This document shows, piece by piece, positions 6,764 to 63,732 of a stretch of 64,000 nt of DNA (position 1 is the stretch's first letter; each line of letters begins with the position of its first letter). Source of the DNA: an uncultured Candidatus Woesearchaeota archaeon (GTDB lineage Archaea; Nanobdellota; Nanobdellia; Woesearchaeales; UBA10107); the NCBI GenBank assembly GCA_963835585.1, contig CAWIGF010000001.1:34184-98183 (forward strand). The letters are read 5' to 3'. A program made the position numbers and the translations under genes. The notes below the pieces were generated by a model. It made no database searches. It had not been told where the DNA came from and saw only the letters and a list, made by a program, of their open reading frames with translations.

Positions 6764-6847
6764 GCGGGATTGCCGGAGTGGTCTAACGGGCGCGATTCAG
6801 GGTCGCGTGGCTTAGTGCCTTCGCGGGTTCGAATCCTGTGTCCCGCA
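6764..6847 (+). tRNA. tRNA-Leu(CAG), class II with long variable arm
   Basis: Hand-folded. Acceptor GCGGGAT/GTCCCGC, 3-bp D stem, anticodon stem CGCGA/TCGCG with loop TTCAGGG, long variable arm, T loop TTCGAAT. CCA not encoded. Confidence 0.75.
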
Positions 6848-6887: not shown

Positions 6888-6971
6888 GCGGGATTGACAG
6901 AGTGGTCAAATGTGCTTGGCTAAGGACCAAGTGGCTTAGTGCCTGCGCAGGTTCGAACCCTGCATCCCGCA
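6888..6971 (+). tRNA. tRNA-Leu(TAA), class II
   Basis: Hand-folded. Acceptor GCGGGAT, anticodon stem CTTGG/CCAAG with loop CTAAGGA, T arm GCAGG-TTCGAAC-CCTGC, 3' end ATCCCGCA. Confidence 0.75.
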
Positions 6972-7042
6972 TCGCACTATAAGTTACATGCGGCAGAAAA
7001 TAGCACTGGTTTGGAGTTATGGGTCAGTGCATGCATCCCGCA
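6972..7042 (+). repeat. tRNA-Leu 3'-flank unit ending in a second copy of the tRNA 3' terminus (GCATCCCGCA)
   Basis: Sequence ...ataagttacatgcgg..agcactggtttgga..gcatcccgca. A homologous unit follows repeat copy 2 at 10114-10184. Confidence 0.6.
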
Positions 7043-7132
7043 CGATTTATAAATCTTGGTTTTACTTTTTTCTAAATGCCAAAATCACAAAATATATAAA
7101 TACCAATATATTGGTATAAACATACCAAATAA

Positions 7133-7732
7133 ATGGTTAGCATGATAACAGACAAGAAATTGCGAATATTAAGCACATTCGGTCTCCAAGAAGTCCTGAC
7201 GTTCAAGGACATCAAGAAGCGGGCAAAGCAGAAGTCTAACAACGCCATACAGCTTGCTTTGAAAAACTTCATGAAACAAGGCATCATAGCGAAGCGCCAT
7301 GCAGGCAACGTATTGCTATATTCTCTTAATGCTGGCAATAGCACGGCACAGGCATACCTTGAAGTATTGAACAATGAGAAGATTTCATCATTACCTAAAG
7401 AAGCATTCATAATACAAGACAGGCTCTTGAAGAAGACAGCATTATTTATTCTGCTGGTCTTTGGAAGCTATGCGAAAAAAACAAACACCAAAACATCTGA
7501 CATTGATGTTGCGGTCATAACCGAGCAAAAGAAAGATATCGCTCCAATCTTGGAGACAATCAAACGACAAGAACTGCGACACATCGATTATCATATATTT
7601 ACGCAGGATGAATTCATAAGCATGCTTCATGAAGACCAGGAGAATCTTGGAAAGCAAATCTATAAAAACTGCCTAATCGTCTATGGGTACATCCCTTACA
7701 TCAATCTGGTGAGCAATGAAAGACATCGCTAA
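7133..7732 (+). CDS. Minimal nucleotidyltransferase (MNT) with N-terminal winged-helix domain; toxin-antitoxin-type component
   Basis: Nucleotidyltransferase motif GSYAKKTNTKTSDIDVAVI. Overlaps the downstream HEPN gene. Confidence 0.75.
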   Translation: MVSMITDKKLRILSTFGLQEVLTFKDIKKRAKQKSNNAIQLALKNFMKQGIIAKRHAGNVLLYSLNAGNSTAQAYLEVLNNEKISSLPKEAFIIQDRLLKKTALFILLVFGSYAKKTNTKTSDIDVAVITEQKKDIAPILETIKRQELRHIDYHIFTQDEFISMLHEDQENLGKQIYKNCLIVYGYIPYINLVSNERHR

Positions 7733-8195
7733 ACTATATTTGCAACGTGCAGAGAATGAACTGGCCGCGGCAGAGATATTGTATACCATTTCCAGTGATG
7801 CAAAGATTCAGAAAGAGCAGTTCAAGCTTGAAGAAAATTTTACATTTTATAGTGCGGTCATAAGTCATGCATACTACTCCATTTTCTATGCTGCAAAAGC
7901 AATCCTTGCAGAGAACAACATAAATACAACTGCTCCTGAAGTCCATAAGAAGACGCTTGATGCATTTGAAATACATCTTGTTAAAACGGGAAAACTTGAC
8001 GTTGACTTGCTGAAAATCTACAAGGAGTTAGTTGTCAGGGCCGATGATCTCTTAGGAATCTTTTCTTTGGAAAAAAAGAAAAGAGGAGAATTCACATATC
8101 AGAAATTGCCGCAGGCGAACAAGGAACCGGCAAAAGAATCGTTCGACAATGCATCGTCGTTCTTCAAGAACATCAGGAAAGTCCTTATTGGCTGA
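7716..8195 (+). CDS. HEPN domain protein, partner of the upstream MNT
   Basis: All-helical 159 aa protein. Overlaps the MNT gene by 17 nt, the classical MNT-HEPN pair arrangement. Confidence 0.65.
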   Translation: MKDIAKLYLQRAENELAAAEILYTISSDAKIQKEQFKLEENFTFYSAVISHAYYSIFYAAKAILAENNINTTAPEVHKKTLDAFEIHLVKTGKLDVDLLKIYKELVVRADDLLGIFSLEKKKRGEFTYQKLPQANKEPAKESFDNASSFFKNIRKVLIG

Positions 8196-8210
8196 TTTTT
8201 AATTAATCTA

Positions 8211-8402
8211 ATGGAGCAGACTAATGCATGCTACTTAATGGATAATGTTTCCTGTGAGTTCATACCAAGAAGATTCAGAAGGCGCTCTCATATTGTTACG
8301 TTTAAACTCAACGAAAAAGAATTCTTGCTATTAGAAAAACTGGCTCCACACGGCGAAAAATCATCTTATATCAGGGAGAGGGTTTTTCAAACAATTTCTT
8401 AG
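8211..8402 (+). CDS. Small ribbon-helix-helix-like protein
   Basis: Beta strand IVTFKL followed by two helices (EKEFLLLEKLA..SSYIRERV). 63 aa. Confidence 0.35.
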   Translation: MEQTNACYLMDNVSCEFIPRRFRRRSHIVTFKLNEKEFLLLEKLAPHGEKSSYIRERVFQTIS

Positions 8403-8423
8403 GGTAGGGCAATATAAAAAAAA

Positions 8424-9197
8424 TTAGGAAGTTTTCTCGACTGTGTGGATATTGATATTTGCACCTGCTGTTGGAGAATATGATGCAGGGATAGTTATAT
8501 TCGTTCCCCATTGTGCATATGAGATAAGCCCAGAATTATCAAAGCAGAATGTCTGTGTCATGTTGGAATACATGCCTTCATAACACGTTCCAAATCGTGT
8601 ATCATTGTGTGTTTCAAGTGTTTCGAGTTGAATGGAATTCAGGAATGATGACGTTTCATTCTTTACAGATGTATCAATGTTGGGAGGCATTTCTTGAACA
8701 CATGAGGGCGGAGCTTCTGTTGAATTGAATGAGCATCCGCAATCATAACCAAATGTTTTATCAGTACAATCGGGGCTTTGTGGATCCCGAACTACGGAAG
8801 GCAGGCATACAGATGATGTCATCAAATCATATGTGCAAAGTCCATTATTTTTCTCATATATTATGTTCTGTTCTCTGCTCTCATCAGGAAACCCGTTGAA
8901 ATAAGAATACCGTTCTTCGAAAGCGGAGATTTGGTCGTTAGTAACTTCTATTGAAATTATTGATTCATCGTCGATATTTGTAGAACCAGATCCGAATGGT
9001 TCCCATTCACGGATGTATTCCCTCATTTCATAGTTGCTCACATAATTAGATGGCGATATACTGAGTGCAAGTTGTAAATTAGAAAGCATTGTCGAGTCTA
9101 TGGAACGTGTACTTACGTTCTGGCTTGCAATAGGGATTATATTTGTTTGGGTGCAAGCCATCAAGAACAACACAGCAATGAGAAATAATCGTTTCAT
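8424..9197 (-). CDS. Secreted Cys-rich hypothetical protein
   Basis: Signal peptide with lipobox-like LFLMAC, Cys-rich middle region, sequons. Confidence 0.45.
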   Translation of the reverse strand: MKRLFLIAVLFLMACTQTNIIPIASQNVSTRSIDSTMLSNLQLALSISPSNYVSNYEMREYIREWEPFGSGSTNIDDESIISIEVTNDQISAFEERYSYFNGFPDESREQNIIYEKNNGLCTYDLMTSSVCLPSVVRDPQSPDCTDKTFGYDCGCSFNSTEAPPSCVQEMPPNIDTSVKNETSSFLNSIQLETLETHNDTRFGTCYEGMYSNMTQTFCFDNSGLISYAQWGTNITIPASYSPTAGANINIHTVEKTS

Positions 9198-9261
9198 ACA
9201 ATGCCATCACTGAACACATTATATAAAAGTAACGGCAGTTTGTAACTGCTAAATCTGAGCA

Positions 9262-9343
9262 AAAACCACAAGATATAAAAACTCCAGCACAGTCCATATC
9301 ATTGAAATAAACCATTTATAGCCTTTGGTGGTTTATACTTATG
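9262..9343 (+). repeat. Repeat copy 1 of the ~100 bp cassette-boundary repeat (lacks the tRNA 3' core)
   Basis: Sequence aaaaaccacaagatataaaaactccagcacagtccatatcattgaaataaaccatttatagcctttggtggtttatacttatg. About 95% identical to copies at 10011 and 11304. Confidence 0.8.
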
Positions 9344-9393
9344 AGCCAATTCTATTCTCTAAAAATAGAAAAAATCATCAAGATATCAGCGAA

Positions 9394-9705
9394 TTATTTC
9401 ACTTCAAGAACAATATGTTTCACATCAGGAACAGAAAGAAATATTTCTTCTCCTTTCTTCAAATCAAGGCTATTAACCACATTGCTGTTGAAATAAATTC
9501 CAAGTCGTTTTCCAGATAATTTGACGATTTTTTGTTTTATTTTAAGCGGACCTTCGCGCAGTTCTGAAAGAACTTTCTGGGATGAAGATGGTTCAAATTC
9601 GAAATAATTGCAGTTAGAACATTGATAGCTAATTGCTTTCTGTGAAGCTCCGTGTACAGCGACTTCTACTTTTCTCAATTTATTTCCGCAGTTTGGGCAT
9701 TTCAT
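9394..9705 (-). CDS. Zn-ribbon plus AbrB/MazE-like protein (putative antitoxin or regulator)
   Basis: N-terminal CPNC...CSNC zinc ribbon. C-terminal swapped-hairpin-like segment EEIFLSVPDVKHIVLEV. Adjacent to the 70 aa gene. Confidence 0.4.
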   Translation of the reverse strand: MKCPNCGNKLRKVEVAVHGASQKAISYQCSNCNYFEFEPSSSQKVLSELREGPLKIKQKIVKLSGKRLGIYFNSNVVNSLDLKKGEEIFLSVPDVKHIVLEVK

Positions 9706-9707
9706 AT

Positions 9708-9920
9708 TCAGTTCACCTTTTTTGCATTTATGACAATTAGTGTATTTTTTCTGATTTCGAATAGTATATAATATTCGCCATCTTCAATCTCATATTTTGT
9801 TCCCTTTTTTCTCGGGTTTTTCGTCTTGAATATGATTTCTACGACTTTACTCCAAGGAACATCAGTGGCATGATGCTCTAAATAGTGTTCGCCTGGTTGT
9901 ATGCCTGTAAAATAAATCAC
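9708..9920 (-). CDS. Small RelE-fold-like protein (DUF4258-like?), putative toxin
   Basis: 70 aa. Precedes the Zn-ribbon/AbrB gene by 2 nt on the same strand. Palindrome gtactacacttttgtagtac lies in its promoter region (about 9925-9945). Confidence 0.3.
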   Translation of the reverse strand: MIYFTGIQPGEHYLEHHATDVPWSKVVEIIFKTKNPRKKGTKYEIEDGEYYILFEIRKNTLIVINAKKVN

Positions 9921-10010
9921 GTCAACACCGTACTACACTTTTGTAGTACATTATACTATATAAAACTTGTGTTTTTCTTAAGTTGCCAAGTTAATGTCAG
10001 TTTTTTGCAA

Positions 10011-10184
10011 AAAACCATAAGATATAAAAACTCCAGCACAGTCCATATCATTGAAATAAACCATTTATAGCCTTTGGTGGTTTATACTTATGGGCTGGTT
10101 CCTGCATCCCGCATCATACCATAAGTTTAATGCGGTGGAAAGTAGCACTGGTTTGGATTTATAGCCCGGTTCCCAGTCGTCGCA
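10011..10184 (+). repeat. Repeat copy 2, ending in the 13 nt tRNA-Leu 3' core CCTGCATCCCGCA (10101-10113), plus a downstream degenerate tRNA-3'-like unit
   Basis: Same ~100 bp unit as copies 1 and 3. The following ...agcactggtttgga...cccggttcccagtcgtcgca parallels the flank at 6972-7042. Confidence 0.8.
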
Positions 10185-10229
10185 TAATTTTTGAACAGTT
10201 GCTTTTTTAGAAATTTCGTTTGTTAAGGA

Positions 10230-10793
10230 TCAAGAAAAAGTAGTTTCTTTTTCTACGACAGAATCAATTGAAGTAACAGGAACTATTTGCGAAGAATTTC
10301 TTTTCTTCTGGTACCATTTATATCCAGATTTAAATCCAGGAATTGCATATTTTCTTGAGATATAAATCACATAATAGCTTACTGCAGCCCAGCCACTGAT
10401 ATCAAAACATATATCTGCGGCATCATGCAAAAAAGTAATTCTTATGGCATCTGGCAAGTGCCGCACATAGTCGAGATTTCCAACAAGTAATTTTACAGCG
10501 GGTTCTACTATATTATCAATAGCATACTCTTCTGCTTTCTCGAAAGCTTTTGTATAACGTGCGCTAAATGCGGCAGGAAGCATACCGACTTTAAGCAAAA
10601 TCGCCGGCAGTCCATGAACTGGACAACCAAGCGCATGGAGCGCATCAACTCGTATGGTTGGTAGACCAAGACGCCTAGCTACACTTCCCACAAGACCGAT
10701 CTTCTTTTTTTGAGCATCATGATTAGTTTCACATGCCGATATGTGTATATGTTTTTCTGCCATCATAAATCGGAAAGAAGACACACGCGACAT
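10230..10793 (-). CDS. Hypothetical protein with locally elevated GC, divergent from nikR
   Basis: 187 aa. Codon usage is visibly more GC-rich than surroundings, which suggests horizontal acquisition. No confident family assignment. Confidence 0.4.
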   Translation of the reverse strand: MSRVSSFRFMMAEKHIHISACETNHDAQKKKIGLVGSVARRLGLPTIRVDALHALGCPVHGLPAILLKVGMLPAAFSARYTKAFEKAEEYAIDNIVEPAVKLLVGNLDYVRHLPDAIRITFLHDAADICFDISGWAAVSYYVIYISRKYAIPGFKSGYKWYQKKRNSSQIVPVTSIDSVVEKETTFS

Positions 10794-10919
10794 ACAACGA
10801 AGGAGTCAATCGCCAACATATGTGTCAACTTAAACATTGAAACAAGTTAATAATATTTAATGCTTTTCTTAATAACAAATATGGATATGTTTATAAAAGA
10901 GTTAATAATACAATAAAGC

Positions 10920-11303
10920 ATGACAATCATCAGCATGTCATTAAATGATAAGCTTCTTGCCGAATTGGACAAAATAGAAAACGAAGCAGGATTCTCCGGC
11001 AGAAGCGAGGTAATTCGAGCAGGATTGCGTCTATTGATGCAGGAACGCAAAGAAAAATCCAAGATGAAAGGACGTATAGATGCTGTTTTGCTCGTCATAC
11101 ATCATGACAAATATTCGGAAGAAGTTTCTGCGATACGGCATAAGTACCAATCGCTAATCAAGACACAAGTCCACAACCATGTCGAAAATCATAGGTGTCT
11201 TGAAGTGTTCATTCTCCATGGAGATGCGAATGCAGTACTCAAACTCGAGGAAGAATTCCAAACAAATAGAAAGATGGAACTAGTTAGATTGATAACAGCA
11301 TGA
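10920..11303 (+). CDS. nikR: NikR-family nickel-responsive transcriptional regulator
   Basis: N-terminal RHH (SMSLNDKLLAELDKI..GRSEVIRAGLRLL). C-terminal metal-binding domain with His cluster (VIHHD, VHNHVENHRC). Collinear with E. coli NikR architecture. Confidence 0.75.
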   Translation: MTIISMSLNDKLLAELDKIENEAGFSGRSEVIRAGLRLLMQERKEKSKMKGRIDAVLLVIHHDKYSEEVSAIRHKYQSLIKTQVHNHVENHRCLEVFILHGDANAVLKLEEEFQTNRKMELVRLITA

Positions 11304-11406
11304 AAAACCACAAGATATAAAAAATCCAAGACAGTCTATAACACTAAAATAAACCATTTATAGCCTTTGGTGGCTTATACTTATGGGCTGGTTCCTGCAT
11401 CCCGCA
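11304..11406 (+). repeat. Repeat copy 3, ending in the tRNA-Leu 3' core CCTGCATCCCGCA (11394-11406)
   Basis: About 88% identical to copy 2 over roughly 100 bp. Confidence 0.8.
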
Positions 11407-11620
11407 CTCCTTTTAGATCTTAGTATTACTTTACGAATAAATTGCACAAAATGTAGCGAAACAAAATTTTTCTGAATCCATCAACAATGGTTTTGTTTTC
11501 TTGGAAAAATACCATAAAATCTTGATGCATACGTATTATCCTTACAATATACTCAATAGGGTGTATATTGATAATGCTTATCAACAATAGGGCACTACGT
11601 GCTTTATTGGGGGGAAAACA

Positions 11621-12115
11621 ATGTCACTAAAAGAATACATGCAAAAAAAGAAATCAACATTAACTGCAATCGTTCTCGGGGCGATGATTGCCGGGTGCTC
11701 GCAACAAAACACACCAACCACGCCAGCTCCAGACGGAAACCAATTGGTCGGCGGTGCCGGAACTCCTGCAATCAATGTGAGCTATGTGCCCCCGATCGGA
11801 AATGGCAACAATATTACTGGAAAGGTCAATCATGTAATCCCTAACAAGACAATAATAACCGGGTACATATACGTGCCAGGTGAAAACTGGTGGATAAAAC
11901 CTTACGCCTCACCACCATACTGGACAATAAACCATGACGGTTCATTCAGTTTCCCTTATGATACAGGAGGAATTGATCAAGAAGCGACGACAATCGAACT
12001 TTATCTGCTTCCGTTAGCTAACGAATCACAAATACCTATCGTTGAGTATGCAATCAGCCCACCTGATATGAGCGGCGTTGGAACTGAAGCGCAGACAATA
12101 ATAAGCAGACAATAG
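11621..12115 (+). CDS. Putative lipoprotein
   Basis: Signal peptide with lipobox-like AGCS. Gly/Pro/Asn-rich. Elevated GC. Confidence 0.45.
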   Translation: MSLKEYMQKKKSTLTAIVLGAMIAGCSQQNTPTTPAPDGNQLVGGAGTPAINVSYVPPIGNGNNITGKVNHVIPNKTIITGYIYVPGENWWIKPYASPPYWTINHDGSFSFPYDTGGIDQEATTIELYLLPLANESQIPIVEYAISPPDMSGVGTEAQTIISRQ

Positions 12116-12125
12116 TAGGCAAAAT

Positions 12126-13124
12126 ATGTCAATGCTGAACGGGCTTGAAAGAAAAGTGATAAGAGGGTTGGCAGCCATCGTTCTTGGTTCCGGTCTTGTC
12201 ACTGCAACGATAAATTGCAGCGGCAAACCAACAAGTTTTCCAAATTCAAGCAAGCCAACTGCGACTCAAACAAACACTATCACAAGTACGCACACCGTAA
12301 CGAACACACCCACTGTAACTCCCACACCAATAACAGTTCCTCCTCCCGGATATAGTTTAGTCTGGAGCGATGAATTCGACGGAGCAATAGGAAGCGCACC
12401 GAACGCAAGCAACTGGACATACGACATAGGCAACGGGACCAACGGTTGGGGAAACTTTGAGTACGAGAACTACACAAACAGCACAGACAACGCCCAGATA
12501 ATCTCGGATCCTAATGCAACTGATGGAAAAGCACTTGCGATAATCGCGAAAGATACTATGCCCGGAAGTTCCAATTACATCCAAGTGGGAAGGTACACGT
12601 CCGCACGGCTAAAGACGGCAGGGTTGCAACAGTTCCAGTATGGACTTCTCGAAGCAAGGATACAACTGCCATACGGCGATGGGATATGGCCAGCTTTTTG
12701 GACGCTAGGGAATGATTACACTACCGGAACGGTATGGCCTAACTGCGGTGAAATAGATATCATGGAAAATTTTGGAAATGCATCTCAGCAATCGATAAAT
12801 CACGGCTCGATGCACGGACCAGGATATTCAGGAGGCAATGCGCTAACAAGCACATATGCTCTTCCTAATGATCAGGTGTTCCATGATGGTTATCATCTCT
12901 TTGCCGTCCAATGGCAGCAAAATGAAGTCCAGTTTTACGTGGACAACATATTGTATGAAACTCGCACTCCTGCCGATATTGGCTCTAACGCATGGGAATT
13001 CAACGAACCATTTTTCTTGTTGCTTAACACCGCGGTTGGCGGAAGCTGCCCGGGAAGTCCAGACCCTTCAACATCATTTCCGCAGACGATGAAAGTTGAT
13101 TATGTAAGATTTTATCAGAATTGA
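12126..13124 (+). CDS. Glycoside hydrolase family 16 (beta-1,3-glucanase/laminarinase-like) with signal peptide and Thr/Pro linker
   Basis: GH16 catalytic motif GEIDIME. WSDEFDG near the domain start. Thr/Pro-rich linker TPTVTPTPITVPPP. Elevated GC. Confidence 0.8.
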   Translation: MSMLNGLERKVIRGLAAIVLGSGLVTATINCSGKPTSFPNSSKPTATQTNTITSTHTVTNTPTVTPTPITVPPPGYSLVWSDEFDGAIGSAPNASNWTYDIGNGTNGWGNFEYENYTNSTDNAQIISDPNATDGKALAIIAKDTMPGSSNYIQVGRYTSARLKTAGLQQFQYGLLEARIQLPYGDGIWPAFWTLGNDYTTGTVWPNCGEIDIMENFGNASQQSINHGSMHGPGYSGGNALTSTYALPNDQVFHDGYHLFAVQWQQNEVQFYVDNILYETRTPADIGSNAWEFNEPFFLLLNTAVGGSCPGSPDPSTSFPQTMKVDYVRFYQN

Positions 13125-13147
13125 TTTGCCAATATTATTTTATTACA

Positions 13148-14392
13148 TCACTTTCTAATTCTTGCTGCATTCGCATGAGCTTCAAGTCCCTCAAGCGTTG
13201 CTAATTGCTGCACGATGCCATATAATTCACCAGTGATTGCTTCTTGATTCGTCGCTATCTTCACAAAATTGAAGACGGACAATCCACCAGTGTATCGAGC
13301 GCATCTGTTTGTTGGCAGTACGTGATTTGTTCCGCTCGCGTAATCTCCAAGCGCCGTCGGAGTTTCTCCCAAGAACATAGAGCCATATTCAGTGAATCTC
13401 GGTTTGAGCTCATCGACATCTTCCAGCATGAGTTCCAGATGCTCGGGAGCATATCTGTTCGCTACATATGCTGCTTCACTTATGTTATTTACAAGTATTA
13501 TGTTGCCGTTATCCAAAGATTTTCTTGCTATTTCAGCTGTCTTCGGTCCCTGTAGTTGCTTTTCTAATTCGTCTTGCACTTTTTGTATCAATTTTTCTGA
13601 TGTTGTTATCAAAATGGGTTTTGCGTCTGATGCATGTTCCGCCTGCGCAAGAAGATCTGCCGCTATGTATTTGAAATTCGCTTTCTCATCCGCTATTATT
13701 ATGATTTCGCTTGGTCCTGCGATGAAATCAATACCTACTCTTCCGTACACTTCCTTCTTTGCAAGATTTACGTATTTGTTTCCCGGACCGACGATGAGAC
13801 TAACCGGTTCGATGGATTCGGTTCCGTATGCCATCGCCGCTATGGCCTGTGCACCTCCGACTCTGTATATCGTGTCGATTCCTGCTATTTTTGCTGCGGC
13901 CAATGTCAGAGGATGCACATCTCCATCATGGCTTGGCGGAGAGCATACTACAAGTTTTTTTACGCCAGCGACTTTTGCAGGAATTCCTATCATGAGCGCA
14001 GTGGAAAGCAGGGGATAATTGCCCCCAGGGATATAGCCTCCAACAAAATTAATTGGAGTGATGCTCTGTCCCAGACGAACTCCCTTGTTCTCAATCTCGA
14101 AGCTCTTCAATTGCCGCATCTGTTTTTCAGAAAAAGCCTTTATGTTCGCGGCTGCCGTGTGTATGGCCGTAGATACCCCGGGATCAAGCGTGTTTAAGGC
14201 ATGCGCGATTTCTTTCTCGGAAACCTTGATGTCAGGAAGATCAACATTGTCAAATTGTTTGGTATAATTCCTTACAGCACTGTCTCCATCTTGTCTCACA
14301 TCAGCTATTATTCTCTTGACTAACTCAGATTCTTCAAGTTCCTGGGAATCAAAAAAAGATTCTCTCAGTTCACTACACTTTACAACTTTCAT
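13148..14392 (-). CDS. hisD: Histidinol dehydrogenase
   Basis: Motifs GPGNKYV, DFIAGPSEIIIIAD, EHLEL. Start assigned at MKVVKC. The ORF track extends 9 codons upstream to 14419. Confidence 0.85.
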   Translation of the reverse strand: MKVVKCSELRESFFDSQELEESELVKRIIADVRQDGDSAVRNYTKQFDNVDLPDIKVSEKEIAHALNTLDPGVSTAIHTAAANIKAFSEKQMRQLKSFEIENKGVRLGQSITPINFVGGYIPGGNYPLLSTALMIGIPAKVAGVKKLVVCSPPSHDGDVHPLTLAAAKIAGIDTIYRVGGAQAIAAMAYGTESIEPVSLIVGPGNKYVNLAKKEVYGRVGIDFIAGPSEIIIIADEKANFKYIAADLLAQAEHASDAKPILITTSEKLIQKVQDELEKQLQGPKTAEIARKSLDNGNIILVNNISEAAYVANRYAPEHLELMLEDVDELKPRFTEYGSMFLGETPTALGDYASGTNHVLPTNRCARYTGGLSVFNFVKIATNQEAITGELYGIVQQLATLEGLEAHANAARIRK

Positions 14393-14641
14393 TTTCCAAG
14401 AACCTCTTTTTTGATGCAATCCAGTACACTAGGTATTTTATAAAGGTATGTCCGATGGAAACACAGTCATCCTATAAGAAATATATAACAAATACTAAAT
14501 ACTTCCAAATCAATACTATCTGTGGGGTGTGTAACATGAAAGAGCTATCGCGTTTCAAGCTTGAAGACTTGAAGAGTGAAGTAGAGCTGATGAAAAAGCA
14601 GATGTACCAGGAAAAGTACGGCAAAACACGAGATAAGAAAA

Positions 14642-14824
14642 TTATTTAGGGACAATCTTTAATTTCTTGCTAAGGCCGTCGCTGAGCCTGACTACGTCGT
14701 ATTTCTTTATTCCCTGGGAATCCGCCCACTTTTTGGCATTTTCCTCAGTCTTGAAAGTCCTCGGTCTCTTGGCCCTGTGCCTTCCCCGATGGACCAGTTG
14801 TGGTTTCTTGTGTCCTATACCCAT
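14642..14824 (-). CDS. Small basic protein (60 aa, from MGIGHKK)
   Basis: TATA-like ttataaa about 25 nt upstream. Highly basic N-terminus (HKKPQLVHRGRHRAKRPR). Function unknown. Confidence 0.3.
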   Translation of the reverse strand: MGIGHKKPQLVHRGRHRAKRPRTFKTEENAKKWADSQGIKKYDVVRLSDGLSKKLKIVPK

Positions 14825-14905
14825 ATCTGTTCTAGAAAATAGGCCATTTATAAAGGTTGTCATTGACAAAAATTTATAAGAAAGCATGTAAAAGCAGTCC
14901 TGAAA

Positions 14906-15241
14906 TTGGAAGATTACACAAAAACGCAAACAAAGGAAGTAAGATACAGAAATATTCCGCTTCCCGTTGGAAAAGTTCCCCGCAATCTTGGATTTGCAAA
15001 AGCATACATCGACAATGTAGTTCCAAAGCTTTATTCAGTTTTCAGAACAAGAAATTTGAATAAAATACGGCTGGTTGCAAGAAAAATCGCATACTCCGAT
15101 GTCGACCTGGTTGCGCGAGCTAGCGAAGAACCTGATGCTTCATACCTTGAAGGAATATTAAGAATGAAGCCGCCCACGGCAAAACGCCTTGGAAAGATTC
15201 TTGTAAAGAATTACCATGTCCACTTCAAAGAAGCCAAATAA
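14906..15241 (+). CDS. Hypothetical protein
   Basis: 111 aa ORF with no recognisable motif. Confidence 0.3.
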   Translation: MEDYTKTQTKEVRYRNIPLPVGKVPRNLGFAKAYIDNVVPKLYSVFRTRNLNKIRLVARKIAYSDVDLVARASEEPDASYLEGILRMKPPTAKRLGKILVKNYHVHFKEAK

Positions 15242-35386: not shown

Positions 35387-36307
35387 CTAATTATTCTTTT
35401 TGACATAATCCCGACAAAACTTCTGTTCAGAAGCCAATCTAATCAAACCCAACCACCTATTCTCGCCTGTTTCAAGTCTTAATCCTGCTAATTCGCAAGG
35501 AACTCTTCCTGTTGTTGTGTGAGCTTCAATAAAGTTATGCTGTAAAACAATTCCCTGCATTAAAATAGGAGCTGACCAAAGCGCTTTTAACGTTCTAAAA
35601 TTTCTTACTCTGTCTTTTATCTTGCTGAAAACTGTTTCAATTCTAACATTATGAACTTTTGATTTTCTGACATTATTTACTCTATGTTCTACCTTAAGTC
35701 TTGAGCCACCATGGTCAACACGTGTTGCTCTATTAGAAGAGAAAATTCTTCTCATGGCTTTTGGATAGAATAATGCGGCATCAGTTTGAATATATCTTGG
35801 CAATCCATTCTTTGTTGTCTTTTTTAAGAAATCTACTGCTTCCTCAACATTGGCAGTAATGCTATAGTGTATTCCTGAAATAAATCTCGTTCCATAATCA
35901 ATAGCACACCAAAATTTATCTTTTCTGCCTTCGCAGTCCAATTCGGTTTCATCGGCATAAAAATTACCTTCAAGAATTGGTTTTAAGTTATCAGTATATT
36001 TCTGAACTTTCAAAACATACTTTCTACACCAATCCAATACGCTTACATGAGAAGCATTATGTGGGTAATGCCTTCTGAAATGATTTCTTACTTTCCTGCT
36101 TGAAAGATTGCTGAAATAAAGGTCTATGCCGTCAGTAATCTTTTCAGGGCTATTTCTCATTCTAAAGAAACCATCATCTTTTACAAAAGCAGTTTTACAA
36201 GATTTACATTCATATCTCTGTATTAAACCCCTATTCTGTGTCTTTCTCATTCCTCGTTTCTTTATGTCTTTGCTTTGACATTTTGGGCATTTTGTTTGGT
36301 TTTCCAT
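35387..36307 (-). CDS. DDE transposase with N-terminal C2C2 zinc finger (IS1595/IS1-like)
   Basis: N-terminal CPKCQS...CKSCK. Central and C-terminal acidic residues. 306 aa. Sits inside the IR-bounded element with 8 bp TSD. Confidence 0.75.
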   Translation of the reverse strand: MENQTKCPKCQSKDIKKRGMRKTQNRGLIQRYECKSCKTAFVKDDGFFRMRNSPEKITDGIDLYFSNLSSRKVRNHFRRHYPHNASHVSVLDWCRKYVLKVQKYTDNLKPILEGNFYADETELDCEGRKDKFWCAIDYGTRFISGIHYSITANVEEAVDFLKKTTKNGLPRYIQTDAALFYPKAMRRIFSSNRATRVDHGGSRLKVEHRVNNVRKSKVHNVRIETVFSKIKDRVRNFRTLKALWSAPILMQGIVLQHNFIEAHTTTGRVPCELAGLRLETGENRWLGLIRLASEQKFCRDYVKKNN

Positions 36308-36414
36308 GTTATATACCTTATTAGTATATTATTATATAAGTATAGCTTATATATAAATCTTACGTTTCTAGTAATATACGAAAGATTTATATACCATATT
36401 AGTATATATGATAT

Positions 36415-36565
36415 TATGGGATTAATAGAAATAAAGCAAAAAGGCTTTAAATGTGAACGTTGTGGTCACGAATGGGTACCACACGACATAAAGCAAGAAC
36501 CAACAGTATGCCCAAAATGTAAGTCACCTTATTGGAATAAACCAAGACAAAAGAAAAAGGATTAG
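36415..36565 (+). CDS. Small zinc-ribbon protein (49 aa) translationally coupled to the DNA methyltransferase
   Basis: Translation MGLIEIKQKGFKCERCGHEWVPHDIKQEPTVCPKCKSPYWNKPRQKKKD. Its stop is immediately followed by the methyltransferase ATG. Confidence 0.45.
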
Positions 36566-37336
36566 ATGAAAACAGAACACAAGATAGTTTACGGGGATTG
36601 TTTAGAAGAATTAAAGAAACTACCTGATGAATCAGTAGACTTGATTTTTGCAGATCCACCTTATGGACTAGCAAAGAAAACAGGATTAGACTCACCATAT
36701 AGCAAACACGTAACGCTTCAAGAAGCATGGGATATTTTTTCAAAAGATGATTTTTTTAAATTTAATATAGAATGGATAACAGAATGTTGGCGAGTTTTGA
36801 AGCATGGTGGCAGCTTCTGGGTATGTGGTTCATTCCATAATATTTACCAACTAGGATTTATTTTACAGCATTTAGATGCTAAAATAAATAATAGCATTGT
36901 TTGGTTTAAGCCAAATGCACAGCCAAATATAACATGCAGAATGTTCACAGAAAGCACAGAGCATTTAATATGGGCTGTTAAAAATCATTCCAAAACAAAA
37001 TGGACATTTAACTACGAAGATACCAAAAACAAGATTTTTGATAGCATAAATCCAAAAGGAAAACAAACTAGAAATGTCTGGAGTATTGCTCTTACATCGC
37101 CAAAAGAAAAATGGGCAGGAGTTCATCCCACACAGAAGCCGATTGAATTACTCAGAAGGATTATTTTATCATCTTCAAAACCAAATGACTTAGTTCTTGA
37201 TCCTTTTGTCGGCTCTGGCACAACTTCTGTAGTGGCTAAACTGCTTGGGAGAAATTCAATAGGTATAGACAATAACAAAAAATATCTAGAGATAGCAAAG
37301 AAAAGACTAGCACAGGAAACTTTACTTCTTAGGTAA
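36566..37336 (+). CDS. Type II DNA methyltransferase, beta-class (N4-cytosine or N6-adenine)
   Basis: Motif IV DLIFADPPYG precedes motif I VLDPFVGSGTT (beta-class order). Confidence 0.85.
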   Translation: MKTEHKIVYGDCLEELKKLPDESVDLIFADPPYGLAKKTGLDSPYSKHVTLQEAWDIFSKDDFFKFNIEWITECWRVLKHGGSFWVCGSFHNIYQLGFILQHLDAKINNSIVWFKPNAQPNITCRMFTESTEHLIWAVKNHSKTKWTFNYEDTKNKIFDSINPKGKQTRNVWSIALTSPKEKWAGVHPTQKPIELLRRIILSSSKPNDLVLDPFVGSGTTSVVAKLLGRNSIGIDNNKKYLEIAKKRLAQETLLLR

Positions 37337-37855
37337 TGGAAGCCCTAGAAATTCCAATGGTAATTCTTCAAAGAAATAATGACAATCAACTGATTTAATA
37401 TATTCTAAAACATCTTTATATTCCGCTGATTTAAACCATTTGCTTAAAATATAAACATATTCAATCTTAATTCCTGTATTTGAAAATAGTTTAATATATT
37501 CCTTCTTTTTAAAATCGCAGGTTTGTAGCTTTTCATCAACAGATCCTGCAACCTCTTGAAACTTCATTTCTATTATGAAAAGAGTCTTAGCTGAAAGAAC
37601 AAAGATTGTTTCATCAGGTAGAAGTTTTTTTGAAAGTCTTGACTTTGCATCATAAATTTTCAATTTAAGACCTAACAACACATCATATACTTCATGTTTC
37701 TTGTAAAATGAAGCAATTAATTTATCATTAAAGAATAAGTCATTTCCAGCAACTTTATACCCATTCAATTTACTAAAAACAGTTCTAAGGTCTAATCTTT
37801 GCTCAAATTTTAATCCAGACAGGGTATTTGATCCCCCTTCACCACCACTAATCAT
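37322..37855 (-). CDS. Putative type II restriction endonuclease (PD-(D/E)xK-like)
   Basis: Convergent with the methyltransferase, 15 nt 3' overlap. PD..ExK-like PDETIFV...IIEMKFQ. Confidence 0.5.
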   Translation of the reverse strand: MISGGEGGSNTLSGLKFEQRLDLRTVFSKLNGYKVAGNDLFFNDKLIASFYKKHEVYDVLLGLKLKIYDAKSRLSKKLLPDETIFVLSAKTLFIIEMKFQEVAGSVDEKLQTCDFKKKEYIKLFSNTGIKIEYVYILSKWFKSAEYKDVLEYIKSVDCHYFFEELPLEFLGLPLPKK

Positions 37856-49188: not shown

Positions 49189-49656
49189 TTATTGGGAAGA
49201 GGACCCATTTTCTTCGATTAGCCTATTCTTGTTATTTTCAGAAGGAATCACTTCAGAAATTTTGCAAGTCGCGAATCCCTTTGTTTTTTCATCATTTTGC
49301 AATACAAATGAACCGTTATAGGCAAAAGAACTGCCATTTTCTGTTTGATGCGTCTCGATTGGATCACCAAAATTGTAATCAACTCGGCCATGTGGAGACA
49401 TTACAAGAAATTCCAAACTTTCGTCAGAAAGATTTCCCAATAGGACCAAATCTGAATCACAAGAATGGCATGAAGCCTTTCCTTTGCATGCAACTGTACC
49501 CTGTATTCTTTTATTGTTGAATAGTTTGTAAAAATTTCCGGAATAAGCCATCCGTATCCCATGTGAATTTGACTCAACTTCAATTTTATATTCTGTTCTT
49601 GATGGTTGTCTGTGACATGAACCTGAACTGTAACACACTTTAATTCCCCATATCAT
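49189..49656 (-). CDS. Hypothetical protein
   Basis: 155 aa. Cys/His-containing. Overlaps the thermosome stop. Confidence 0.35.
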   Translation of the reverse strand: MIWGIKVCYSSGSCHRQPSRTEYKIEVESNSHGIRMAYSGNFYKLFNNKRIQGTVACKGKASCHSCDSDLVLLGNLSDESLEFLVMSPHGRVDYNFGDPIETHQTENGSSFAYNGSFVLQNDEKTKGFATCKISEVIPSENNKNRLIEENGSSSQ

Positions 49657-51288
49657 CCATGTTCATTGGCTTTTGCATCGGCTGGTTCTGTCCTGACGCA
49701 ATAACATCATCGATTCTCAGAATCATCTCGGCAACTTCCGCTGCGGAGGAAACAGCCTGCGTCTTTATTTTCAACGGTTCAATTATTCCTTCGTCCCATG
49801 CATCAATTATTTTTCCGGTGAACACATCGATTCCTGCCCATTTGACCCCTTTGTCATGGGCAACTTTCAGATCTGTAAGGACATCAATTGGATCGAGCCC
49901 CGCATTTTCCGCGAGCGTTATCGGAATGATTTCCATCGCATCGGCGAAAGCGAGTACTGCCAACTGCTCCCTGCCGCTCAACGAAGTAGCGAATAATCGC
50001 AGGTTTCGTGCAACTTCAACTTCGCATGCTCCTGCACCTGCGACAACTCTTCCTGATTTTATTGCAGCGACCAAGTCACCTATCGCGTCTTCCATTGCCC
50101 GCTTAACTTCCGCGACAATATGCTCAGTTCCTCCCTTAACTAGAATCGTTACTGACTTTGACAAGCTTGTGCCGCTCACGTACGTTACATTATCATCTCC
50201 CATCTTCCGTTCCTCGACAATTTCTGCATATCCCAAATCGGATGAGCTCAAGTCAGAGAGCTTTGTTACAATCGCTGCTCCTGTTGCTCTCGCTAATTTT
50301 GCCATGTCCGATTTCTTTACCCTTCTGCATGCATAAATGCTATGCTTTGCGAGATAATGCTGAGCCAATTCATCTATTCCTTTCTGACAGAACACAACAT
50401 TGACATGCAATGAGGACAATTTGTCGACCATTTCCTTTATGATCCGTTCCTCAGTCTCTAGGAACGAGTGCAGTTGCGATGGGTCCGTGATTTGTATTTT
50501 CGCTTCTATCTCAGTATTCTTTATTTCAAGAGCAGAATCAATCAATGCTATCTTCGGATTTGCCAGTTTCTGGGGCATTCCGGAATGAACTTTTTCCTTG
50601 TCGAGAATAAGACCCTCAATTATCTCTGAGTCCTCGACACTATTCCCTATCTTCTTCTCTATCGCGATATCGTCGCGCTCGATGACAAAATTTCCTTTTT
50701 CATCTTTTTCAATGACTTTTATAAGTGCCTTCAGGCACAGCAGGGAAAGTTTTTCTTTCGCAACCTCTGCCCCCTTTCCAGTCATTGCCGTCAATGCTAT
50801 CTTCTTCAATAAATCAAGATTTCGCTCGTCAATATGCTCGGAAATATTCCTCAATATAATCTGCGTTTTTTCCTCCGCAATCCTGTATCCCTTTACAATG
50901 ATGGTTGGATGAATATTTTTGTCGAGAAGAGTTTCTGCCTGTTTGAGCAATTCTCCTGCAAGAACAGCTGCCGTCGTCGTTCCGTCTCCAACAACTTCTT
51001 CCTGTGTCTTCGCAACTTCGACAAGCATTTTTGCGGCTGGATGATCCATCTGCATTTCCCTCAGGATTGTCGCGCCATCATTCGTGATGGTGATATCCCC
51101 AAGCGCGTCAACAAGCATCTTGTCCATTCCTTTTGGACCCAATGTTGTCCTGACTGTTTCCGCTACTAACTTTGCGGCCGCAATATTATTTCTTTGGGCA
51201 GACCTTCCTGTGGTCCTGGTTGTGCTTTCAGGTAGAATGAATATTGGTTGAACGTCTTTAGCCATCTTTCCCTCAATGAGTACGCTAA
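49640..51288 (-). CDS. ths: Thermosome (group II chaperonin) subunit
   Basis: N-terminal [13 protein letters not shown]... and motifs [15 protein letters not shown], long collinear match. Own TATA (tttataaata) about 20 nt upstream of the ATG. The ORF track fuses it to the upstream transposase. Confidence 0.9.
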
Positions 51289-51324
51289 CCACCCTATCCT
51301 TATTTATAAAGGTTATCATGGTCA

Positions 51325-52141
51325 GGCTCTGTCCTAAAAGTCGGTAAAGCCAAGAAAATAAGTTATGGCAGACTAGCCGCAAATATACTTCTGTGCGGAT
51401 TGTCCGCACAGTTTTGGAGCTGACACTAGCTCCAAACTTGCGTTTTATACTGCTGTTGCTTGATTCAACAAGCGATCTTCGATGATACGTTCTCAATCGA
51501 TACTGCCTCGCCATTTTCTTACGATAACGACCTCGCTTTGCGTTCTTTTTCGCTGGAACCATGAGCACCATGTTGTGCTCATGCGCAAACTTGAACAAAT
51601 ACTCGGCAGAATATCCTTTGTCTGCCACAGCAATCCTCGGATTACTGTTTTTTAAGAGAAATTTCGCATCCTTGATGTCGTGTGCTGGAAGCACACGAAT
51701 CTTCGCAGCGCAGAATTTCTTTTTTCGCGTGTCGAATGCTGTGCTTAGTTTGATGGGAATACAAGGGAAATTCCCGTCGATGCGCTTCAGATAATGATAG
51801 CTCGGATTTGTCCTCGACAAACCTGTGCTGTCGATGGCAACGAGATGCGAGTTGCCACAAGTTATGCTCAATATTTTCTGCCAGAAAGCTGTATCGAGTT
51901 TTGCAGCGGTATACTGCAACGCTGATTTGCTTGGGCATCGTATGCCAAGCAAATCGCAGTGTTCCCGGACCCTGCGATAGGACAATCTGCAATATGCCTT
52001 GATGATCAGTGCGTGCAAATGCTCCAGAAATTCATACGTCTTCGGTCCGAAATGGTGCAGCCATCTCGGACAGCCCAATCTCCTCAACAAACGCTTAAGT
52101 TTTTGTATTAGTTTTGTTTCTTTTCCCATGTGGGGGTTCAC
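51325..52141 (-). CDS. IS5-family DDE transposase whose ORF lacks a stop inside the element
   Basis: N-terminal HTH-like region. DDE-like residues in IDSTG, ADKGY, ESSNSSIKR. The ORF runs through the terminal repeat and in frame into the thermosome gene, giving the 833 aa track ORF. Confidence 0.7.
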
Positions 52142-63377: not shown

Positions 63378-63695
63378 CCGGGTTGTCCTTTGCTAAAAAA
63401 GTGGTGCGCCCCCCGTGACTTTCAGTGAACTCATTTCTGAGTCCGACGTTTGAACACGGGACCGTTATCGGTGTTTTGTAACACTCTCGATGTCTAGCCT
63501 TGCTGAGCAAGGATATCAGTTTCACTTCCGCTTACTTTCGCACGGCGGAACGAGTGCTCCATTGCCCCGCATCCCGCAAGCATTTGCGGGGAGCAGTCCA
63601 GGCTAAGCTAGGGGCGCACGTTAACAAGAAGGAAGTAGCTCATTTTTAAAGGTTTCCTATAAACCGCAGTACCAAAACCCACAGGACAACCGCGT
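63378..63695 (+). ncRNA. GC-rich structured RNA of about 320 nt, candidate SRP RNA (7S)
   Basis: Local GC far above the genome background. Terminal helix GGTTGTCCT (63381-63389) pairs with AGGACAACC (63683-63691). Alu-like GUGGUGCGCC and UGUAAC near the 5' end. Helix-8-like GAAGGAAGUAGC in the 3' half. Confidence 0.45.
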
Positions 63696-63732
63696 GTGAG
63701 GCTTATAAGTCATAAATTCTATTTATTCTTGA

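Follow-up and report, generated by a model that had tools for sequence, protein, structure and literature searches.

Repeats and genes downstream of a tRNA-Leu gene

The window analysed here, 64,000 nt of contig CAWIGF010000001.1 (positions 34,184 to 98,183; assembly GCA_963835585.1), comes from an uncultured archaeon with a tiny genome, which was placed in the Woesearchaeota (DPANN) through the genes flanking the locus and their relatives, and contains a 7.5-kb block of foreign genes downstream of a tRNA-Leu gene, hereafter called the islet. The anchor of the islet is a tRNA-Leu(AAG) gene on the + strand (6888-6971), detected with both ARAGORN and Rfam and scoring 56 bits with the Rfam tRNA model; the tRNA is intact, the island starts at 6972, and the last 13 nt of the gene (6959-6971) form core O0, the first copy of a repeated sequence and the putative attL core. 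Its upstream neighbour on the same strand is tRNA-Leu(CAG) (6764-6847; ARAGORN and Rfam), the 3' end of which, CCTGTGTCCCGCA, is two positions off the repeated core. In an Rfam scan of the window and nine related loci, tRNAs were the sole matches.

An earlier, sequence-only reading of this DNA had named the anchor tRNA-Leu(TAA), a designation not in agreement with its anticodon loop, C-U-A-A-G-G-A, from which ARAGORN reads AAG. The tRNA of a relative (L023, 11231-11305) gave the same reading of the anticodon loop, and ARAGORN called Leu(AAG) in 15 further metagenomic loci (L032, L034, L050, L052, L055, L070, L082, L096, L099, L100, L101, L132, L135, L136 and L139), as against 12 with Leu(GAG). 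To our knowledge, Archaea are considered to be essentially without A34 tRNAs; the Leu(AAG) calls therefore imply A34/I34 decoding in these lineages, or else need checking.

The 13-nt core O, CCTGCATCCCGCA, covers the 3' strand of the T-stem, the 3' strand of the acceptor and the discriminator of the tRNA. Exact copies were found at 6959-6971, 10101-10113 (O2, + strand, at an internal junction of the putative POP' type) and 11394-11406 (O3, + strand), the latter two at the positions already given in the sequence-only reading; the short copy that it had placed at 7033-7042 is present, but extends over 7030-7042 as a 12/13 variant, CATGCATCCCGCA. The three exact cores and the 12/13 copy are all in one orientation, downstream of the tRNA, and with up to two mismatches allowed the core has 7 matches, compared with 0.82 expected. 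The cores delimit two segments, E_I (6972-10100) and E_II (10114-11393), each flanked by O.

Two types of unit, all on the + strand, accompany the cores. Unit A, which contains an imperfect internal inverted repeat, precedes O2 as A2 (10010-10100, or to 10113 with the core) and O3 as A3 (11303-11393, or to 11406 with the core), representing the putative P arms at the right ends of E_I and E_II, respectively; these two copies are 91.3% identical over 104 nt, and a third copy, A1 (9261-9346), which lies inside E_I and lacks a core, is 97.7% identical to A2 over 86 nt. A 33-mer of unit A occurs only in these three copies in the 64 kb (0 expected). Unit B, the putative P' arm, follows the tRNA as B1 (6972-7042), which opens with a 28-nt left part (6972-6999), continues with 30 nt similar to the end of unit A (7000-7029) and closes with a degenerate core, O' (7030-7042), and follows O2 as B2 (10114-10183), ending in a strongly degenerate core, O''; B1 and B2 share 85% identity over 62 nt, core included. 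Both families of repeats, an approximately 90-bp unit with one core-less copy and an approximately 70-nt unit after the tRNA and the second core, had been recognised in the sequence-only reading, and the alignments uphold them. After O' lies a trailer-like flank, F1 (7043-7068, + strand), 73% identical, in register, to F3, the flank that follows O3. The GC content of the array (37.3%, versus 39.2% in the window) gives no compositional signal.

Neither the GTDB species representatives nor IMG/VR nor the JGI metagenomes contained a conserved 21-mer of unit A. A 17-mer, GGTTCCTGCATCCCGCA, was found in seven viral contigs, none of which resembled the units any further, and these were set aside as chance matches; a 22-mer of the tRNA T-arm and end was absent from viral contigs.

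The segments between the repeats carry distinct sets of genes. In S1, a gene for an MNT-type nucleotidyltransferase (7133-7732) overlaps one for a HEPN protein (7716-8195), both on the + strand and identified with Pfam/NCBIfam, followed by a 63-aa open reading frame (ORF; 8211-8402, + strand) and a gene for a 257-aa Cys-rich protein with a lipoprotein-like N-terminus (…LMAC; 8424-9197, - strand), neither with a family match. Segment S2 holds a 103-aa protein gene (9394-9705) and an adjoining 70-aa ORF (9708-9920), both on the - strand, which are possibly a toxin-antitoxin pair; matches of S2 cargo to Zn-ribbon families were weak, and the exact S2 proteins are not on record, which is uninformative. 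In S3, a 187-aa ORFan (10230-10793, - strand), identified as such by protein searches, is followed by a NikR-like ribbon-helix-helix (RHH) regulator gene (10920-11303, + strand; Pfam/NCBIfam), the stop codon of which abuts A3. The sole match of the 187-aa protein among 5.8 billion clustered proteins was itself, with no match in PDB, and a full HMMER scan of 1.84 billion representatives recovered only a few weakly matching, partial relatives, 114-138 aa in length. Among the gene labels of the sequence-only reading, MNT-HEPN and NikR are backed by the family searches, and "RHH" for the 63-aa ORF and "toxin-like" for the 70-aa ORF have no family match; for the 103-aa protein, the Zn-ribbon part is retained as a weak match below threshold and the AbrB part found no match, and the gene noted as GC-shifted proved to encode the ORFan.

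The sequence-only reading had also drawn the right boundary too early, as the island runs about 3 kb further, to about 14480. This distal part, E_III (11407-14480), comprises F3 (11407-11432) and genes for a 164-aa protein, a GH16 glycosidase and HisD (minus strand); its GC content, 43-47%, is above that of the rest of the array, and it has no att repeat that is intact; the stretch 14452-14475 may, tentatively, be a decayed copy of part of a tRNA. The lone hisD, the GH16 glycosidase gene and the lipoprotein-like 164-aa gene (11621-14419) are missing from the syntenic regions of all relatives examined, and were probably acquired horizontally.

When the 60 nt on either side of each core were aligned, the tRNA and A2 junctions showed no similarity on the left, 13/13 identity in the core and 45/60 on the right; the A2 and A3 junctions agreed at 55/60 positions to the left and throughout the core (13/13), with no similarity to the right; and the tRNA and A3 junctions had the core as their sole match. 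The three junctions are thus tRNA-O-B, A-O-B and A-O-F, with homology switching exactly at the 13-nt core, a mosaic that corresponds to the set BOP'/POP'/POB' expected of two related elements in tandem at a tRNA attB. Segments S1, S2 and S3 have no similarity to each other, indicating that the repeats bound different cargo and not duplicated blocks. In addition, an independent Logan assembly of ERR10755942 reproduced tRNA-B1-S1-A1 (L001), A2-O-B2-S3-A3-O (L024) and A3-O-F3 (L002), and broke only within repeats; the reproduced junctions leave out the A1-S2-A2 links, and they indicate that the array as a whole is not an assembly artefact.

We found that the stretch formed by the B1 end, O' and F1 (7007-7068) aligns in register with that formed by the A3 end, O and F3 (11371-11432) over 62 nt, with 74% identity and E=6.8e-6; in shuffle tests, 22/2000 and 10/2000 scored as high for the two flanks, the latter figure being that of F1. 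Unit B would accordingly be a 28-nt left end joined to a relic of the order A end, core and trailer, and B2 is laid out like B1 but is more decayed. On the simplest reading of these alignments, an adjacent ancestral pair of elements may have been excised via its outer cores, with the inner junction kept in the new P' arm; alternatively, B may be a 58-nt deletion derivative inserted at two cores. Both of these readings require recombination at O. For the core-less A1, near-identical to A2, homologous recombination between A copies would seem the better explanation.

Chromosomal setting, recombinase search and related loci

The islet is bordered on one side by genes for DUF655, Rpb4, L21e, SepF and ZPR1, and on the other by genes for Metallophos, DUF4145 and Lhr. 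The backbone resumes at 14537-14929 with a 37-aa ORF (14537-14650, + strand) and a 95-aa ORF (14642-14929, - strand), homologues of which stand right after tRNA-Leu in the relative L017. Relatives with ZPR1 proteins 75-82% identical share this backbone, and the interval between ZPR1 and the 95-aa/Metallophos genes differs in gene content each time, several of them having a tRNA-Leu(GAG or AAG) within it. In L017, tRNA-Leu(GAG) is followed by 62 nt, a 34-aa ORF, a 138-aa ORF and then the 95-aa backbone gene; the homologues in the window, the 37-aa ORF (63% identical) and the 95-aa gene (46%), lie 7.5 kb from the tRNA, and DNA homology to the L017 tRNA flank begins near position 14490. Since the tRNA of L017 stands beside the conserved flank, 6972 to about 14480 (7.5 kb) is extra in the window relative to L017. 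This relative is the nearest substitute for an empty site; being from another species, it shows a variable site and not a recent insertion. No homologues of the cargo were found in the syntenic regions of seven relatives, a tblastn search with the cargo proteins against all 155 loci returned nothing outside the same sample, and 14 GTDB loci sharing ZPR1 synteny at 53-63% identity had no conserved tRNA context.

Pfam searches of 41 ORFs in the window (31 of at least 170 aa, and all ORFs of the array included) revealed no tyrosine or serine recombinase, IntI, Cas1 or PolB, confirming the earlier remark that no integrase is visible. The only transposase domains among the scanned ORFs were two of the DDE type far from the locus (35387-36307 and the N-terminal part of the ORF at 49640-52141). 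E_I and E_II are therefore without an integrase of their own and have the form of att-flanked modules without a recombinase gene, suggesting either that an integrase from another locus moves them in trans, as happens with cis-mobilizable elements (CIMEs), or that they are immobilised remnants.

Similar repeats, on a smaller scale, were observed elsewhere. A metagenome scan with a tRNA-Leu variable-arm/T-arm pattern gave 120 loci. Over the tRNAs of all loci in the analysis, the 3'-terminal 11-mers recurred downstream on the same strand for 15/154 tRNAs and upstream for 0/154 (431 kb scanned per side), with a chance expectation estimated at about 0.8 matches. Fourteen metagenomic loci besides the window thus have one-directional partial-tRNA copies, and in each the duplicated end matches the tRNA of its own locus. 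Most cases involve tRNA-Leu, with a second 3' end 45-146 nt downstream (L045, L056, L058/L138, L062, L090, L098, L102, L109 and L117); further cases involve tRNA-Thr (L055) and tRNA-His (L122). Two loci have tiny cassettes: L126, where the tRNA end recurs in part at about +520 and again at about +1490 and a DUF4258/DUF2283 pair makes up the first cassette, and L127, with one 89-aa membrane ORF within 367 nt. Copies of tRNA 3' ends in one direction only are therefore a recurrent and apparently common feature of these DPANN archaea, and of the examples seen in this analysis the array in the window is the largest.

The sequences between tRNA and duplicate have features of their own. The spacers of L045 (4414-4480) and L102 (2369-2426), on different contigs, are related stretches of 46-54 nt between the tRNA-Leu end and its duplicate that keep two hairpins, the second fully compensatory (CGAAC-GCA-GTTCG versus TCAAT-CGC-ATTGA), which suggests a conserved structure, possibly a minimal element or a protein-binding site. 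In L098, L062, L090 and, to a weak degree, L109, the spacers, located 90-135 nt downstream of tRNA-Leu, have the motifs gagaacctAGGTTCGAcga and gagattgNgagc in common; they resemble a partial tRNA 3' half into whose T-loop about 55 nt has been inserted, with a duplicate of the locus's own tRNA 3' end behind it. In L069 (1-280), a tRNA-Leu has a T-loop intron of about 45 nt, and the entire 3' part, about 95 nt with the intron, is duplicated 183 nt downstream. In L152 (12463-13381), an intact tRNA-Leu(GAG) is preceded, at a distance of about 830 nt, by a 26-nt copy of the tRNA-Leu 5' end, and a LAGLIDADG_3 ORF occupies the interval; this arrangement is the 5'-side counterpart of the 3'-side duplications.

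Proposed integration at the tRNA 3' end and competing explanations

In our judgement, the islet was probably built by repeated site-specific integration, or accretion, at the 3' end of tRNA-Leu(AAG). As such it is a feature of an ordinary kind, a tRNA-anchored accretion islet, the modules of which are unusually small, integrase-less and CIME-like. Serial integration at the tRNA had been put forward in the sequence-only reading, and the proposal is supported by the switch of the mosaic at the core, by the unrelated cargo and by the tRNA of the relative, which stands beside the conserved flank. According to this model, core O would be the segment of identity and crossover, and units A and B would be the P and P' arms borne by the elements; tRNA-O-B1 would represent attL (BOP'), A2-O-B2 an attP-like tandem junction (POP') and A3-O-F3 an attR-type site (POB'). 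E_I and E_II would be related elements with different cargo, E_I having brought the MNT-HEPN genes, the 63-aa ORF, the lipoprotein-like protein and a small two-gene module behind the extra core-less A copy, and E_II the ORFan and NikR; an older, decayed insertion (the 164-aa protein, GH16 and HisD genes) may fill the remainder of the 7.5 kb. The relic junction in each B arm would have been left by co-excision of two adjacent elements, following the accretion-mobilisation model. Of the mechanisms considered, the one with most support is conservative site-specific exchange at the tRNA 3' end, for which the integrase would have acted in trans or would since have been lost. The repeats, the junction mosaic, the extra DNA relative to L017 and the lack of a recombinase gene are observations, and from them we infer the type of recombinase, probably a tyrosine integrase, the order of events and any present-day mobility. 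The mix of cargo (MNT-HEPN, a regulator and ORFans) is typical of islands and favours this model.

Several results weigh against integration. The core is just 13 nt long, and with the A arms diverging by 9%, the lack of any change in it is statistically unsurprising; A1 lacks a core, and the S1/S2 boundary is therefore not explicable by recombination at O; and the right end of the island is without a clean attR. The end of unit A, tried as a decayed tRNA 3' half upstream of O, was not significant (shuffles scoring as high, 1002/2000 for A2 and 60/2000 for A3). The 21-mer of unit A was found in no other genome, viral or metagenome contig of the three collections searched, so that no integrase-bearing parent is known. 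Besides the lack of a recombinase among the 41 ORFs scanned in the window, Pfam searches of 113 ORFs located up to 4 kb downstream of tRNA-Leu genes elsewhere gave no integrase among the 25 families listed, each with at least two ORFs. In addition, no genome of the same species and no empty site was found, the closest relatives having 75-82% ZPR1 identity, and no excision junction is at hand for the islet.

The main mechanistic rival is a casposon-like target-site duplication (TSD), by which the modules would be non-autonomous transposons and the 13-nt repeats TSDs produced by a casposase-like or other staggered-cut enzyme acting in trans and repeatedly hitting the tRNA-Leu 3' end. Family-2 casposons of Methanosarcina target the tRNA-Leu 3' end, lie in tandem with a shared TSD and have solo ends by a CGCA motif (PMC4779613), and the islet resembles them in using the same tRNA isotype, in its tandem arrangement with a short shared repeat and in repeats ending in or involving CGCA; moreover, a subterminal inverted repeat was identified in E_II (CCATAAGTTTAA / CCATAAGTATAA; 11/12 positions match; 28/2000 shuffles as high), and in every metagenomic locus the duplicated end is that of the local tRNA. 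However, this inverted repeat lies 5-7 nt in from the tips and its counterpart in E_I is not significant, so the islet does not share the clean terminal inverted repeats of casposons, and neither Cas1 (the casposase) nor PolB was found among the scanned ORFs. The register is also different, as the TSD of M. mazei starts at CGCA and runs downstream (PMC4779613), and at the junctions of B1 and A3 the homology continues to either side of the core, which a pure TSD would not give; we consider this mechanism improbable. Duplication within the locus, by slippage, unequal crossing-over or gene conversion, of the tRNA 3' end together with its trailer, with no integration and with ordinary variable chromosomal genes in between, would fit the near-identical direct repeats A1 and A2 that bracket S2, A1 being core-less in a manner consistent with homologous recombination, as well as the trailer-like sequence after several cores, the GC content of the array, close to that of the window, and the short stuttered partial tRNA copies of L055 and L117, explicable by slippage. 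It accounts poorly for cargo segments that are mutually unrelated, for a mosaic that switches precisely at the core, for 7.5 kb absent at the equivalent position in the relative and for copies in one direction only (15 downstream versus 0 upstream), and in our view is unlikely.

Much less can be said for the two remaining explanations. That unit A is a generic dispersed repeat, such as a miniature inverted-repeat transposable element (MITE), present here in three copies by chance, seems very unlikely, because all three copies in the 64 kb lie at one locus, two of them continue, in register, into the tRNA 3' end sequence, and the 21-mer has no match in the databases searched, even though the count of A copies covers 64 kb of a 340-kb source contig and the short-read assembly breaks at the repeats. 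An integron-like array, with A/B as folded sites of the attC type and the tRNA end as attI, had been offered as an alternative in the sequence-only reading, along with a check for attC hairpins. In its favour, conserved repeats, 100-170 nt long, separate cargo segments of 0.7-2.2 kb, some of whose genes are of the toxin-antitoxin type, and unit A has an inverted repeat, imperfect as it is; such repeat-punctuated cargo resembles the Vibrio cholerae repeat (VCR) arrays of Vibrio superintegrons, VCR-type cassette arrays being likewise composed of small cargo units with toxin-antitoxin-like genes and conserved repeats of about 100 nt. Nevertheless, A/B folded no better than shuffles (z-scores -0.94 to +0.31; DNA and RNA, both strands), no R''/R' GTTRRRY motif was found, the 41 ORFs scanned in the window include neither IntI nor a tyrosine recombinase, the cargo lies in both orientations with some segments multi-gene, and the anchor is a tRNA gene rather than attI; an integron thus seems highly improbable.

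Integration of the kind proposed for the tRNA 3' end has counterparts among known systems. The CIMEs and tandem accretions of Streptococcus (ICESt1/ICESt3; PMC5704250, PMC7563491) are likewise att-flanked modules without recombination genes of their own, in tandem arrays with internal att sites, and the relic sites of the islet would fit composites excised together; unlike them, the islet is in a DPANN archaeon, has modules of 1.3-3.1 kb and has no known cognate integrase-bearing element. Tycheposon islands of Prochlorococcus (10.1101/2020.12.28.424599) also occupy a streamlined genome, are seeded at tRNA genes, and consist of tandem elements separated only by a partial tRNA, with older partial tRNAs and remnants scattered around and with adaptive or defensive cargo; tycheposons, however, carry a tyrosine recombinase and replication genes, whereas the islet is without any hallmark gene and its partial tRNA is much shorter (13 nt). 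Archaeal att sites have a minimum of 8 bp and a median of 17, with one case of 13 bp, and arrays arise by reuse of one site (PMC6563490). The elements of Thaumarchaeota and other archaea (PMC6563490; PMC8371274) accordingly resemble the islet in their target, the distal 3' end of a tRNA gene, in their short direct repeats and in arrays formed by reuse of a site, but are defined by their integrase and usually exceed 5 kb.

Further features of the window and implications

The two transposase domains in the window are each part of a larger arrangement. The first, a DDE_Tnp_IS240 transposase (35387-36307, - strand), adjoins tRNA-Ser and tRNA-Thr and is followed by a N6/N4 DNA methylase (36566-37336) and a weak PD-(D/E)XK nuclease match (37322-37855), and 35387-37855 is probably a restriction-modification module linked to an insertion sequence (IS). 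The second lies in an ORF of 833 aa (49640-52141, - strand), in which DDE_Tnp_1 (residues 100-261) is in frame with a complete thermosome domain, Cpn60_TCP1 (326-816); this fusion probably reflects read-through from an IS remnant into the chaperonin gene, or a start called too far upstream. Near the edge of the window, 63395-63645 (- strand) contains a GC-rich stretch of about 225 nt in a genome of 39% GC, with a fold of -90.5 kcal/mol (z=-3.07, 0/200 shuffles as good), a U-run at its end and no Rfam match even at E<=1; it has the appearance of a structured RNA that lacks annotation. At 63732 begins a truncated ORF that contains a LAGLIDADG-like motif and has no Pfam match.

For the partial-tRNA copies taken together, a broader and more speculative idea, which we consider unlikely, is that in DPANN archaea tRNA 3' ends, above all those of tRNA-Leu, serve to dock very small cassettes of 0.4-3 kb from a common pool, each without an integrase and equipped with conserved recombination arms and with genes for toxin-antitoxin, defence or regulatory functions, and that a chromosomal recombinase shuffles them in trans. 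If this were true, the docking system would be integron-like in its working and mechanistically distinct from the integron, and the "empty" partial-tRNA duplications of 45-150 nt, which about 12% of the tRNA-Leu loci sampled contain, would be its footprints or minimal elements.

For the islet itself, accretion at tRNA-Leu(AAG) would make the locus a tRNA-anchored hot spot at which defence and regulatory genes have been gained in kilobase-sized, integrase-less pieces, in the DPANN, a group with tiny genomes and few described mobile elements. A search for one-directional partial-tRNA repeats may therefore be a cheap finder of such islets in metagenome-assembled genomes, where integrase-based detection misses them. 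If still mobilised in trans, the modules would represent an archaeal equivalent of the bacterial CIMEs and would point to a recombinase that recognises the 13-nt tRNA end.

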